Origin: Escherichia phage BEU50
DNA length: 64,000 nt
Strand: one strand, 5' to 3'
Sequence record: OM632671.1
Shown one piece after another: positions 2,817-63,349 of the stretch. The notes beneath the pieces were generated by a model that was given only the letters and a program-made list of their open reading frames with translations, had not been told where the DNA came from and did no database searches. The first letter of the stretch is position 1, and each line of letters begins with the position of its first letter. A program made the translations under genes and the position numbers.

Positions 2817-3263
2817 ATGTCCAAATATTTAACTCGTAAAGACCTTCTGGCAGTTGGCGGTGAAGTTGTTGCAGTAGTTCGTAATGGCGAATACGGTTCT
2901 GAAGTTTCTAAAGAGTTTCGTTCTCGTGAAGGTTTTTACTTCTTTGTTAAAGGTTCATCTGATTGGCGACAAGTAGCAGCACGATTCTTTGTAGGACGTC
3001 AACGTTCTAAACAAGGGTTGGATGCAATTCTTTCTCACATTCGTCAAGGCCGTTCGCAACTAGCCCGTACCATGGGCACTAACAATATTGAATATGATGT
3101 AATCTTTGTTGCAGCTAAGAATATGAAACCACTGACCACTGGTTATGGTAAAGGTCAATTGGCTCTGGCGTTCACTCGCAACCATACATCAGAATATCAA
3201 ACACTCACTGAAATGAACCGTCTTCTGGCAGATAATTTCAAATTCATTCTGCAGAGTTACTAA
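2817..3263 (+). CDS. ndd: Nucleoid disruption protein Ndd-like
   Basis: 148 aa; size and position (last sizeable gene before the tiny membrane ORFs and gene 52) match T4 ndd; remembered similarity only. Confidence 0.55.
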
Positions 3264-3606: not shown

Positions 3607-4932
3607 ATGCAATTGAATTCTCGTAATCTAAAAAGTATTATTGATAACGAAGCCTTAGCATATGCGATGTACACCGTTGAAAACCGTGCAATCCCAAACA
3701 TGATTGATGGATTTAAACCGGTTCAACGTTTTGTGGTTCATCGTGCATTAGATTTGGCTCGTGGTAATAAAGAAAAATTTCATAAACTTGCGTCAATTGC
3801 AGGCGGTGTTGCAGATTTAGGTTATCACCACGGTGAATCTTCTGCACAAGATGCAGGTGCATTAATGGCTAACACATGGAACAACAACTATCCACTGTTA
3901 GATGGCCAGGGCAACTTTGGTTCTAGAACAGTCCAAAAAGCTGCAGCATCTCGTTATATTTTTGCTCGTGTAAGTAAAAATTTCTATAACGTATATAAAG
4001 ATACTGAATATGCTCCAGCTCATGAAGATAAAGAACACATTCCACCAAAATTCTATCTTCCTATTATTCCGACAGTTCTTTTGAATGGCGTCTCTGGTAT
4101 TGCAACCGGTTACGCAACAAATATTCTGCCTCATAGTTTTAAATCAGTCAAAAAGGCTGTATTACAAGCTCTTCAAGGTAAAAATGTCACTAAGCCAAAA
4201 GTTGAATTCCCGGAATTCCGTGGTGAAGTACATGAAGTTGATGGGCGTTATGAGATTCACGGAACATATAAGTTCACATCTCGCACTCAAATGCAGATAA
4301 CTGAAATCCCATATAAATTCGACCGTGAAACGTATGTGAGTAAGGTTCTTGACCCGTTGGAAGACAAAGGTCTAATCTCATGGGAAGATGATTGCGGTGA
4401 ACACGGCTTTGGGTTTAAGGTGAAGTTCCGTAAAGAGTACTCGCTTTCTGATGATGAAGAGCTACGTCATGAAAAAATCATGAAAGATTTTAGTCTCATC
4501 GAACGTCGTTCACAAAACATCACAGTGATTAATGAAAAGGGTAAATTAGCGGTCTACGATAATGTAGTGGACTTAATCAAAGATTTTGTTGAAGTCCGTA
4601 AGACTTACGTTCAGAAACGTATTGACAACAAAATCCTTGAATCTGAAAAAGCATTTAAACTGGCTTTTGCTAAGGCACACTTCATCAAAAAAGTTATCAG
4701 TGGCGAAATTGTGATTCAGGGCAAGACTCGTAAAGCTTTGACTGAAGAGCTAGCACAAATCGAAATGTATAAAGAACATGTCGATAAACTGGTAGGTCTT
4801 AACATCTTCCATATCACTTCCGATGAAGCACGTAAACTAGCAGAAGAAGCTAAAGCTAAGAAAGAAGAAAATGAGTATTGGAAGTCTACTGATGTTGTGA
4901 CAGAGTACACTAAAGACTTGGAGGCACTTTGA
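3607..4932 (+). CDS. 52: DNA topoisomerase II medium subunit gp52
   Basis: 441 aa, GyrA-like N-terminal sequence; T4 gp52 size and synteny. Confidence 0.9.
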   Translation: MQLNSRNLKSIIDNEALAYAMYTVENRAIPNMIDGFKPVQRFVVHRALDLARGNKEKFHKLASIAGGVADLGYHHGESSAQDAGALMANTWNNNYPLLDGQGNFGSRTVQKAAASRYIFARVSKNFYNVYKDTEYAPAHEDKEHIPPKFYLPIIPTVLLNGVSGIATGYATNILPHSFKSVKKAVLQALQGKNVTKPKVEFPEFRGEVHEVDGRYEIHGTYKFTSRTQMQITEIPYKFDRETYVSKVLDPLEDKGLISWEDDCGEHGFGFKVKFRKEYSLSDDEELRHEKIMKDFSLIERRSQNITVINEKGKLAVYDNVVDLIKDFVEVRKTYVQKRIDNKILESEKAFKLAFAKAHFIKKVISGEIVIQGKTRKALTEELAQIEMYKEHVDKLVGLNIFHITSDEARKLAEEAKAKKEENEYWKSTDVVTEYTKDLEAL

Positions 4933-61288: not shown

Positions 61289-61804
61289 ATGAATATTTGT
61301 TTAGGCAGTACAATTCCTAAGGGTTACGTAATTGATGTCACTACTTGGGAAAATGACGGCGACAACTATAAAACCAAAACATTATTTGGTGTGGAAGAGC
61401 ATGAGCTCCAACAGTTTAAATATCTCTTGAAGAAATTTAAGAGTCGTCATTCCAGCACTAAAGCTGAACGTTACTGTGGTAATACACCATTCAGTGATTG
61501 CTCGCTTTTAATCTATGAATACTTGGTTGAAGGGCTGTTCTCAGACCAGCTTTATCCAGAATTCATTAAAAAGGTCTTTGATATTGAAGTCGACCTTGGT
61601 AATAAATCTGAAGAAGACGAATCGCGTGTATTCGACCTGTTCCATGAGAATGGATATTTGGTATCAGAAGGTCTCATTGATATTCTTGGTCATGCTTCTG
61701 AATATTATGATTATGATTTCTTGCGTGTAGTTGAATGTGTTGAATTTGCTTATATTGAAGAAGAAATCGTTTTGCCAACTGTTAAAATGATTGATTTGCT
61801 TTAA
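61289..61804 (+). CDS. Hypothetical protein
   Basis: 171-aa acidic ORF. Confidence 0.5.
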   Translation: MNICLGSTIPKGYVIDVTTWENDGDNYKTKTLFGVEEHELQQFKYLLKKFKSRHSSTKAERYCGNTPFSDCSLLIYEYLVEGLFSDQLYPEFIKKVFDIEVDLGNKSEEDESRVFDLFHENGYLVSEGLIDILGHASEYYDYDFLRVVECVEFAYIEEEIVLPTVKMIDLL

Positions 61805-61883
61805 GAATTATGTGTTATTATTAATTCGTACCCTCTATTACCAAAGGTGCTCTAAAGTGCCTTTCATAATAGAAAGTTATTTA

Positions 61884-61957
61884 GGCCCTGTAGCTCAATG
61901 GTTAGCAGCAGTCCCCTCATAAGGGAAAGGTTACCAGTTCGAATCTGGTCTGGGTCA
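61884..61957 (+). tRNA. tRNA with CAU anticodon (Ile2-type lysidine tRNA or Met)
   Basis: Manual fold: acceptor GGCCCTG/CTGGGTC (one mismatch), D-arm GCTC, anticodon loop CTCATAA, T-arm ACCAG-TTCGAAT-CTGGT; 5' end resembles bacterial tRNA-Ile2; CCA not encoded. Confidence 0.6.
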
Positions 61958-61963
61958 TATATT

Positions 61964-62040
61964 CGAGGCATAGCTCAATTGTATGGAGCAACGGACTTCT
62001 AATCCGTAGGTTGAAGGTTAGAATCCTTCTGTCTCGACCA
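61964..62040 (+). tRNA. tRNA-Arg (anticodon UCU)
   Basis: Manual fold: acceptor CGAGGCA/TGTCTCG, D-stem GCTC/GAGC, anticodon stem ACGGA/TCCGT with loop CTTCTAA, T-arm GAAGG-TTAGAAT-CCTTC, encoded CCA. Confidence 0.75.
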
Positions 62041-62058
62041 ACTTTAAGTGAGGAAAAT

Positions 62059-62403
62059 ATGAAAGGCAATATTTATCTGGTAGTTCATGATTTAACGTTT
62101 TATTTTAACGAATATGATACAGTTATTTCTCATCGATTGATTAATTCGCTGTATCAGCATGCCGATTACATTTATGTTCAAAATGAATTTGGACATTGGA
62201 AGTTCATTAAAAATCGTTACGGGTTAACTAGTTTTGAATACTTTGACCGTAAAGACCTTTTAAACGAAATCCCATTGCAACATCGATTCCAGAAACGCGA
62301 ATCATTATATTATTGCCGTCATATACCAAACGCCGAATGTGTTAATGAAGCGATTAATCTATGGCGTCGGCGTCGAGAGCAAATTGATGATATGCCAAAA
62401 TAA
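62059..62403 (+). CDS. Hypothetical protein
   Basis: 114-aa ORF from ATG 62059 (GAGGAAAATATG) just after tRNA-Arg. Confidence 0.5.
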   Translation: MKGNIYLVVHDLTFYFNEYDTVISHRLINSLYQHADYIYVQNEFGHWKFIKNRYGLTSFEYFDRKDLLNEIPLQHRFQKRESLYYCRHIPNAECVNEAINLWRRRREQIDDMPK

Positions 62404-62700
62404 GAAGCCGGGTCGCTACCGGTAAGTCGTCGGACTGATGTTCCCTGAGTAAGGACTGGTCTTAATAAATCTTTACGATTTGTTAATATCCCCTTACATC
62501 ACAGCAGAAACGGCGCACAGAATTATCGATTCGAGGAAATATCTTTGCCGTAAGCCGAGTAGCGTTTTTGACGGAACGTTCGGATATGGTCGAGATATGG
62601 CCTTTTAAAAATATTGAGTAGCGTCAACTGCTTAATAACCGGGTTCGAATCCCGGCGTTTCGTACAAACACTTGCCTTAGCAGGTGGAAACCCCGACAAG
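62404..62700 (+). ncRNA. Putative small stable RNA region with tRNA-like 3' module (compare T4 species 1/2 RNAs, rnaC/rnaD)
   Basis: Non-coding stretch containing a perfect T-arm CCGGG-TTCGAAT-CCCGG (62639-62655) and an acceptor-like pairing CGGAACG/CGTTTCG, but no canonical D or anticodon arm. Confidence 0.3.
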
Positions 62701-62715
62701 GTTGCCGCAAGGCTT

Positions 62716-62744
62716 AGCCCCTTCCGAAAGGTTGGGGCTTTTTG
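62716..62744 (+). terminator. Intrinsic terminator (AGCCCC-UU-CC-GAAA-GG-UU-GGGGCU plus T-run)
   Basis: Hairpin with GNRA loop followed by TTTTT; near-identical copy at 63259-63287. Confidence 0.55.
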
Positions 62745-62788
62745 GCATAATAATAAATAGATAAGTTAATTAACTTAGGAAAAGCAAC

Positions 62789-63253
62789 ATGAAATCATAC
62801 GCTGAATTTTTGACTGAACAATCTAGTTCAGATGTAAAAGCCGCTGCGATTGCAGCAATTCAAGCAGGTAAATATTCTTACAAAGACGCCTCTGATGAAG
62901 AACGTTTCCGTTTTATTAGAGATTTTAAAGCCGAAGGTTTTACTAATGCTAATACTGTTAGCCGAGTTTTTAAAAGCCTAGCTGCATCAGGTGAATTGTT
63001 CCAGAAAGCTACAGGTAAAGCACCTGCGCCAAAAGCGGACCCTAAAGCAGCTCAAGAAAAAAATATCGCCAAAGGAATTATTTCTAAGTATGAAGCAATT
63101 CTTAAAGAGCTTTTAGTAATCAAAACAGAAGGACAGAAACTGGCACGAGCACATAGCTTCAAAGATAATCCTCACGCTCATAGCCTTGAGTATGTTGAAG
63201 ATATCCAAAAACTTATTAAAGACCGTATCTGGTCTGCTAAACAAATTAAATAA
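62789..63253 (+). CDS. Putative capsid-targeted internal protein (CTS-bearing)
   Basis: 154 aa beginning MKSYAEFLTEQ, matching the T4 internal-protein capsid targeting sequence and gp21 cleavage motif L-x-E; lysine/alanine-rich. Confidence 0.5.
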   Translation: MKSYAEFLTEQSSSDVKAAAIAAIQAGKYSYKDASDEERFRFIRDFKAEGFTNANTVSRVFKSLAASGELFQKATGKAPAPKADPKAAQEKNIAKGIISKYEAILKELLVIKTEGQKLARAHSFKDNPHAHSLEYVEDIQKLIKDRIWSAKQIK

Positions 63254-63258
63254 TAGAA

Positions 63259-63287
63259 TGCCCCTTCCTTATGGTTGGGGCTTTTTG
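63259..63287 (+). terminator. Intrinsic terminator (second copy of the GCCCCTTCC...GGTTGGGGC hairpin plus T-run)
   Basis: GCCCCTTCCTTATGGTTGGGGCTTTTT; direct repeat of 62716-62744. Confidence 0.55.
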
Positions 63288-63319: not shown

Positions 63320-63349
63320 GTTTACTTCTTCTAAGGACATGATACTATA
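63320..63349 (+). promoter_or_regulatory. Early promoter cassette (GTTTAC, TGATACTAT)
   Basis: GTTTAC 63320-63325, -10 63344-63349; leader GACTTATCAACCACAGAGGAG repeated at 63721-63745. Confidence 0.55.

Follow-up and report, generated by a model that had tools for sequence, protein, structure and literature searches.

What kind of RNA is encoded downstream of the two tRNA genes of Escherichia phage BEU50, and how might it act? The locus lies near the 3' end of a 64,000-nucleotide stretch of this phage (sequence record OM632671.1), referred to here as the window; all the features described are on its plus strand. An initial annotation made from the sequence had pointed to a minimal pair of tRNAs followed by a non-coding stretch reminiscent of the species 1 and species 2 RNAs of phage T4. 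The analysis presented here upholds this observation and its interpretation in each main point. With a probability of roughly 0.85, positions 61884–62748 represent the Mosigvirus (RB69-type) form of the T4 tRNA/stable-RNA transcription unit, and one of its elements, rnaC (species 1 RNA), keeps a tRNA-like four-way fold through compensatory changes. All the elements are already known (T4-type tRNA-Ile, tRNA-Arg, rnaD and rnaC) and occur here in the RB69-type arrangement. The new points are a fold for rnaC that is backed by covariation and includes complementary loops (a modest new detail), the apparent limitation of rnaC to T-even-like enterobacterial phages and the misannotation of the region in public records.

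Over positions 61800–62800 the window does not differ from Escherichia phage a20, an RB69-like T-even phage (Mosigvirus; 100% identity), and other Mosigvirus phages (the RB69 group) show 96–98% identity to the region; a sensitive BLAST search with 62400–62790 gave matches in 811 phage records. The elements follow one another in the order tRNA-Ile(CAU), tRNA-Arg(UCU), small open reading frame (ORF), rnaD (species 2 RNA), rnaC, structured trailer and intrinsic terminator. Compared with phage RB5, the RNA block (62402–62748) is 95.4% identical and the neighbouring protein genes are 74–86% identical, which suggests either a constraint much stronger than that on the surroundings or recent exchange between phages.

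The segment assigned to rnaC by alignment to RB5 and RB55 and by a covariance model (62526–62664) is identical at 139/139 positions to the annotated rnaC of RB5 and at 137/139 to that of RB55, a T4-species phage. On its 5' side, the DNA of RB5 and RB55 that matches 62400–62520 is annotated as 'rnaD (species II RNA)' and aligns base for base with the window (108/121 and 105/121 identical positions, respectively). Judged by alignment and gene order, with rnaD on one side and the e.x genes on the other, the rnaC stretch is the orthologue of T4 species 1 RNA, and the stretch immediately 5' of it is that of species 2; the likeness noticed initially amounts to true orthology to annotated RNAs. The rnaC of T4 has been seen by northern blot with an rnaC probe and both RNAs are classed as late (PMC9697503), and both are still described in reviews and recent papers as being of unassigned function (PMC3014915; PMC9697503; PMC12685909).

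The description of the stretch as non-coding, with a perfect T arm and no canonical cloverleaf, is borne out. No ORF longer than 58 amino acids occurs in 62404–62750, a T arm is present at 62639–62655, and ARAGORN called no tRNA, no transfer-messenger RNA (tmRNA) and no tag reading frame over the stretch. In an Rfam clan scan the best match of rnaC was a sub-threshold one to tRNA-Sec (16.6 bits against a gathering score of 47, E=3.9). The RNA thus passes no tRNA model or finder, and the loop of its third arm has 6 nucleotides (nt) rather than 7. No Rfam tmRNA match appeared at E values up to 10, and the lone match to YrlA (RF02553; 14.7 bits against a gathering score of 69) lies at 61929–61989, over the true tRNAs.

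rnaC keeps a tRNA-like four-way fold through compensatory changes

The fold was examined in an alignment of 21 distinct homologues from Mosigvirus, Tequatrovirus, Gaprivervirus, Moonvirus, Karamvirus, Kanagawavirus, Gelderlandvirus and Marfavirus phages and from metagenomes. For the rnaC segment the folding energy is -50.2 kcal/mol (z = -4.55 against shuffled sequences), and the RNAalifold consensus is a four-way, cloverleaf-like structure in which 96.9% of 819 alignment cells are paired and both sides have changed in a compensatory way in 24 of the 39 pairs. The observed values were not reached in any of 500 shuffles, and structures slid by 1–3 columns paired in 41–49% of cells.

The two ends of the RNA pair with each other to form the acceptor stem, CGAUUCG at 62527–62533 with CGUUUCG at 62656–62662, giving in order C-G, G-C, A-U, U.U, U.U, C-G and G-C. 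At the third pair, 6 sequences have A-U and 15 have G-C, and the other four standard pairs are invariant. The place of the D arm is taken by a long arm of 71 nt (62534–62604) with the apical loop UUGACG (62568–62573), whose helices carry compensatory changes in 15 of 20 pairs. An anticodon-like arm follows (62612–62637), a 10-position hairpin with the 6-nt loop CGUCAA at 62622–62627 and compensatory changes in 7 of 9 pairs. The T arm reads CCGGG-UUCGAAU-CCCGG, and at its third stem pair 5 sequences have G-C and 14 have U-A. On its 3' side come the acceptor strand, U62663 at the discriminator position and A-C-A at 62664–62666. This U is invariant and is followed by N-C-A, with ACA in the majority of phages and, in Marfavirus-type homologues, a true CCA. 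The junction sequences are invariant, as are both loops except in the Marfavirus-type group.

The initial annotation had mentioned an acceptor-like helix and given no coordinates for it. Such a helix exists, formed by the RNA's own ends as above; the obvious internal candidate, ACGGAACG (62571–62578) with CGUUUCGU (62656–62663), which is the one used by the tRNA-Sec match, is not supported. Although 86.7% of its cells pair, it shows no compensatory change and scores under the shuffle mean; it has an A.C in Moon and mostly fails in PEi26. A local hairpin that uses the same bases does covary.

The long-arm loop UUGACG is the exact reverse complement of the CGUCAA loop. In the Marfavirus-type group (5 sequences) the two loops read UUGGCG and CGCCAA, a compensatory change from A-U to G-C, so that all 126 of 126 cells are paired; the duplex is calculated at about -7.5 kcal/mol. 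A 6-base-pair loop-loop ('kissing') interaction therefore probably locks the two arms together and, if this contact is real, the 'anticodon' loop would be buried and rnaC would be unable to decode.

Several points weigh against this picture. The mature ends of rnaC and rnaD are taken from the annotation of their relatives and are uncertain by about 2 nt. The acceptor stem contains two U.U mismatches and a single covarying pair. The loop-loop pairing rests on one evolutionary event and on the complementarity of loops that are otherwise invariant, a basis of moderate strength. In addition, the long arm has about twice as many base pairs as the short one, so an intramolecular kiss would need a bend, and pairing between two molecules, as a dimer, is just as possible.

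With a covariance model derived from the 21-sequence alignment, rnaC is found once in the window (154 bits), once in the a20 genome and not at all in the Dhakavirus phages VR5 and dhabil, and real tRNAs give weak cross-matches. Degenerate-pattern scans of IMG/VR, metagenomes and 185,579 bacterial and archaeal genomes returned rnaC matches in T-even-like phages only, with no cellular homologue in the scan of bacterial genomes; three GC-rich pattern matches are ascribed to chance, and the covariance model did not match them. By these searches rnaC appears restricted to T-even-like phages of enterobacteria. VR5 and dhabil keep tRNA-Arg, rnaD and the trailer and lack rnaC, with a clean junction ..GCGCACCG|AACACTTGCC.. 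(positions 1494–1700 of the retrieved VR5 piece and 397–560 of that of dhabil), and on account of this clean loss rnaC seems to behave as a separate cassette that is gained or lost. The identity of rnaC across genera with diverged proteins, together with its covarying fold, argues that an RNA left orphan for 50 years is under strong selection, and its two complementary loops offer concrete targets for mutation.

Modes of action considered for rnaC

By analogy with tRNA biology in T4 and E. coli, the unit would be transcribed as one or more long precursors, from which host RNase P and 3'-end nucleases would excise the tRNAs and rnaC, as established for tRNAs. Excised like a tRNA, rnaC would present an acceptor/T-arm minihelix, with its other arms held by the loop pairing. 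It could then act by tRNA mimicry, binding some tRNA-binding factor; this is the most likely mode of action, offered as a guess with low confidence. In its full form the proposal is that rnaC represents a distinct, uncurated RNA family of T-even-like enterobacterial phages that combines the minihelix with loop-locked arms and serves as a non-decoding mimic capturing a tRNA-binding factor of the host or the phage (for instance an enzyme of processing, modification or defence). As a whole this proposal is tentative and rather doubtful; if true, it would offer a structural hypothesis open to test for an RNA that has lacked an assigned function since the 1970s.

Alternatively, rnaD, rnaC and the trailer might act only in cis, as a structured 3' end that protects the transcript of the tRNAs and the ORF or directs its processing. 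Such a role would suit the position of the block at the 3' end of the unit, just 5' of the terminator, as well as the conserved hairpins of the trailer and the direct abutment of rnaD to tRNA-Arg in T4, RB5 and VR5. It is nevertheless unlikely, since rnaC also occurs in the middle of tRNA arrays far from terminators: it is flanked by tRNA-Met(CAU) and tRNA-Gly in Citrobacter phage Moon, and in Karamvirus and Gelderlandvirus phages and Salmonella phage Melville its neighbours, only a few nt away, are tRNA-Trp and tRNA-Gly. Moreover, T4 accumulates both RNAs as discrete stable species.

Little credence can be given to the view that rnaC is aminoacylated in the manner of the tRNA-like domain of tmRNA and, once charged, acts in translation or in a transfer reaction. 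The acceptor stem with its T arm, the invariant U at the discriminator position followed by N-C-A, the true CCA encoded by Marfavirus-type homologues and the weak matches of the covariance model to real tRNAs would be in keeping with charging. Most members, however, encode ACA, and the stem carries two U.U mismatches; the RNA fits no known identity set, shows no tmRNA or tag frame by ARAGORN and no Rfam tRNA or tmRNA match at threshold, and experimental evidence of charging was not found in the searchable literature.

It is also quite improbable that rnaC is a decayed tRNA gene, i.e., a pseudogene or processing by-product carried without function in the tRNA operon. A T arm and an acceptor stem without an anticodon loop, rejection by tRNA finders, a dispensability sufficient for rnaC to be missing from VR5 and dhabil, and about 50 years with no reported function could all be expected of such a relic. 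A decaying gene would not be expected to remain identical at 139/139 positions between Mosigvirus and Tequatrovirus next to genes of 74–86% identity, or to have its structure kept by compensatory changes over about eight genera with two loops and the junction invariant.

Hardly credible is the remaining alternative, implied by the a20 GenBank record, that 62404–62760 encodes small proteins (plus-strand ORFs at 62480–62608 and 62614–62760, of 42 and 48 amino acids with TTG starts, annotated as the coding sequences a20_250 and a20_251, with 'hypothetical protein' features over the region in other records too), since the substitutions fit a paired RNA (the 24 of 39 compensatory pairs), the homologues differ by single-base indels and no reading frame is conserved across the 21, rnaC lies between tRNAs with few-nt spacers in the Moon, Karamvirus and Gelderlandvirus phages, and the same DNA is annotated as non-coding RNA in RB5 and RB55 and gives the T4 RNA detected by northern blot.

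rnaD, the two tRNAs and the other elements of the unit

The T4 species 2 orthologue, rnaD (62400–62520), folds with z = -3.25 against shuffles. A consensus of 11 sequences consists of a 5' hairpin (62407–62423, loop GUCGCUA) and, for the rest, a long irregular rod closed by pairing of 62426–62432 with 62511–62518; a cloverleaf or tRNA-like end was considered for rnaD and rejected on the basis of this consensus. The core is almost invariant in the 11 sequences, which leaves few pairs informative for covariation, and one internal pair alternates between U-A and A-U. The distal part (62446–62497) is a hairpin that is swapped for unrelated sequence of similar length in phages Shfl2, DalCa and KNP5, and dhabil has yet another replacement with the flanking core unchanged. 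rnaD would accordingly be a rod whose core is invariant and whose distal hairpin can be exchanged. The 3' end of rnaD is CAG here, CCA in T4 and RB5 alone, and CCG or CCU elsewhere; the window copy has neither this encoded CCA nor the start of rnaD right after tRNA-Arg. The direct junction and the CCA end are traits of the T4 copy and not of the rnaD family, an ORF being present 5' of rnaD in Shfl2, DalCa and KNP5 too. A 2025 study of the adaptation of a T4-like phage to a new E. coli host describes a convergent single-nucleotide polymorphism in rnaD (PMC12685909).

The ORF between tRNA-Arg and rnaD (62059–62403) encodes 114 amino acids and, according to the ORF list and its homologues, corresponds to RB69ORF150c (phrog_3355); no Pfam match was found for the protein. 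Its ATG at 62059 is preceded by a Shine-Dalgarno sequence, GAGG, at 62050–62053. The short gap to tRNA-Arg pointed out in the initial annotation is real, the encoded CCA ending at 62040 and leaving a spacer of 18 nt. The tight coupling of processing and translation that was proposed on the strength of this spacing is at most a possibility. Tequatrovirus phages Shfl2, DalCa and KNP5 carry a homologous ORF directly 5' of rnaD, and the product is 66% identical in amino acids to that of Shfl2, which likewise abuts rnaD. In these three phages (..UAAGAAGCC..), as in the window, the ORF ends in a stop codon that overlaps the beginning of rnaD. The region 5' of tRNA-Arg is taken up in T4 by the homing endonuclease gene segB instead.

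ARAGORN finds exactly two tRNAs in the 64-kb window, one with a CAU anticodon (61884–61957) and one with UCU (61964–62040), and no others in the whole a20 genome (168,870 bp); Rfam agrees over the first three of four pieces of that genome (~150 kb). Both match the Rfam tRNA family RF00005 over the full model (1–71), with 54.0 and 67.6 bits, respectively, against a gathering score of 29, so that the CAU tRNA is accepted by both programs and is not rejected as a pseudogene. In Rfam scans run at the gathering threshold and at E values up to 10, these two tRNAs alone were above threshold. The minimal set of two tRNAs, remarked on initially in comparison with the eight of T4, is a published trait of the RB69 group (RB69, 2; T4, 8; Nolan et al., 2006, Table 1; PMC1524935).

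The CAU tRNA (61884–61957) was assigned by ARAGORN, Rfam and its identity to RB55 as a lysidine-type tRNA-Ile, the allele of T4. According to the Rfam alignment and direct reading, its acceptor stem is G1-C72, G2.U71, C3-G70, C4-G69, C5-G68, U6.U67 and G7-C66 with A73, and a C13.C22 mismatch reduces the D stem to 3 base pairs, in agreement with the U-U mismatch and short D stem noted beforehand; G27.A43 is a further mismatch. E. coli TilS needs C4-G69 and C5-G68, which tell tRNA-Ile2 from tRNA-Met (PMC11947777; PMC1635315). The CAU anticodon and both these pairs are present here, and the marks that set the initiator tRNA apart (unpaired 1:72 and A11-U24; PMC1635315) are missing, G1-C72 being paired and 11:24 being C-G. 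The sequence is identical at 73/74 positions to the CAU tRNA of the T4-species phage RB55 and at 46/77 to a differing RB5 allele. Its 5' half matches E. coli only at annotated tRNA-Ile genes of an ileY-type locus (87% identity). The CAU tRNAs of T4-like phages, RB69 included, had already been placed in the lysidine class (Nolan et al., 2006; PMC1524935). The suggested resemblance to tRNA-Ile2 is thus well founded, and by these determinants the CAU tRNA is a lysidine-type tRNA-Ile. Host TilS would convert its C34 to lysidine, leading to isoleucine charging and AUA decoding. A73 is followed by UAU, so the CCA end is not encoded and must be added after transcription, presumably by the host CCA-adding enzyme. 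The tRNA-Arg gene, 7 nt further 3', does encode its CCA (61955–61963 compared with 62038–62040), and the two neighbours therefore need different 3'-end maturation.

The tRNA-Arg (61964–62040), defined by ARAGORN, its Rfam score and allele comparison, would read AGA. Its T loop is UUAGAAU, with A56 instead of the near-universal C56, and its D loop, AAUUGUAU, has G18-U19 in place of G18-G19; where the D loop of an allele contains GG, its T loop carries UUCGA. In the alleles compared, the 19:56 elbow pair seems to have switched from G-C to U-A. The tRNA-Arg of VR7 has the same A56/G18-U19 combination with different stems. The window copy has a G directly before the 3' strand of the D stem where other Mosigvirus copies have an A.

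The tRNA alleles are mosaic among T-even phages: the CAU tRNA is close to the T4-species allele and distant from that of RB5 (73/74 and 46/77, as above), and the tRNA-Arg is identical at 61/79 positions to that of RB5 and at 44/82 to that of the T4 species. These comparisons suggest a cassette-like exchange of the tRNA genes that does not follow the genome backbone.

AUA and AGA are among the rarest codons of E. coli. In the long ORFs of the window, ATA occurs 11.9 times per 1000 codons (17% of Ile) and AGA 6.4 times (14% of Arg), with genome-wide values of 10.2 and 6.6; the corresponding published figures for E. coli K-12 are ~4–5 and ~2 per 1000. The two tRNAs kept would therefore read the codons for which phage demand most exceeds host supply, which is consistent with supplementation and does not prove it. 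Their retention while the rest of the T4 set is gone points to tRNA-Ile(AUA) and tRNA-Arg(AGA) as the phage tRNAs most useful in E. coli. Some caution is called for. A 20-kb E. coli sample treated by the same method gave 8.2 ATA per 1000, and the phage-host contrast rests on published genome-wide E. coli values instead, this sample being too small to serve as host reference. Furthermore, several T4-like phages show a poor correlation between their tRNA content and codon bias (Nolan et al.; PMC1524935), and the lysidine formation and isoleucine charging of the CAU tRNA are extrapolated from its allele identity and from the published class (PMC1524935).

The conserved 3' trailer (62665–62748) comprises hairpins at ~62669–62686 and 62702–62715 and then the terminator at 62717–62743 (GCCCC..GAAA..GGGGC followed by UUUUU), and is identical to RB5 at 80/84 positions and to RB55 at 79/84. 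The conserved feature that the initial annotation ended at 62700 is real but extends past that position, to the terminator. The terminator scan overlooked it because its loop has 12 nt. VR5 and dhabil have the same trailer directly 3' of rnaD, with compensatory changes in the terminator stem. A promoter scan gave nothing convincing 5' of the tRNAs, and the T4 late-promoter box TATAAATA does not occur on the plus strand from 58974 to the end of the window. A nearly identical intrinsic terminator, GCCCCUUCC(GAAA/UUAU)GGUUGGGGCUUUUUGG, is found 540 nt away at 63260–63287, the two copies flanking an ORF at 62789–63253; this repeat explains the second BLAST location seen in several records. A sequence resembling a T4 early promoter (GTTTAC...TACTAT, ~63321–63349) lies 3' of the second terminator.

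Public records represent this region poorly. The Mosigvirus records inspected have no rnaC or rnaD feature over the stretch. The a20 GenBank record, and many others likewise, place 'hypothetical protein' coding sequences (a20_251 and a20_250, at 62480–62608 and 62614–62760) over rnaD, rnaC and the trailer, and these look like spurious gene calls over structured RNA. In the SA79RD record, two WebGeSTer 'rho-independent terminators' (3209–3245 and 3840–3866 of the retrieved piece, equivalent to 62008–62044 and 62639–62665 of the window) are the T arm and acceptor 3' strand of tRNA-Arg and of rnaC, respectively. The a20 and SA79RD records both label the lysidine-type tRNA-Ile as tRNA-Met. The practical value of the analysis for annotation lies in the correction of these missing RNA features, spurious coding sequences, false terminators and mislabelled tRNA.

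Comparison with known systems

The position of rnaD and rnaC in T4 is the same as here, 3' of the tRNA genes and 5' of the e.x genes, and so is their order, rnaD before rnaC. The T4-type phages RB5 and RB55 have the same trailer and terminator after rnaC. The arrangement differs at the 5' side of rnaD, which begins 1–2 nt past tRNA-Arg in T4 and RB5 and is separated from it here by the 114-amino-acid ORF.

E. coli tRNA-Ile2 (ileX/ileY) and T4 tRNA-Ile share with the CAU tRNA of the window the anticodon, C4-G69, C5-G68 and, unlike the initiator tRNA, G1-C72. The window tRNA departs from them in U6.U67, G2.U71, G27.A43, an extra D-arm base that gives rise to C13.C22, and the lack of an encoded CCA.

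In common with canonical tRNAs (RF00005), rnaC has a 7-position acceptor stem contiguous with a 5-base-pair T stem, a UUCGAAU T loop, a four-way junction and N-C-A after the discriminator. It differs from them in the 71-nt arm that replaces the D arm, the absence of nucleotides 8 and 9, a linker of ~9 nt in place of position 26, a third-arm loop of 6 nt that is complementary to the long-arm loop and the absence of a variable loop, and it fails the tRNA model and ARAGORN. The tRNA-like domains of tmRNA and YrlA offer another comparison: these are stable, non-decoding RNAs that mimic the acceptor and T arms and are handled by tRNA-processing enzymes. The acceptor/T-arm mimicry of rnaC is of the same kind, whereas it has no Rfam match to either class and no tag frame, and it differs from both in having two arms joined by complementary loops.

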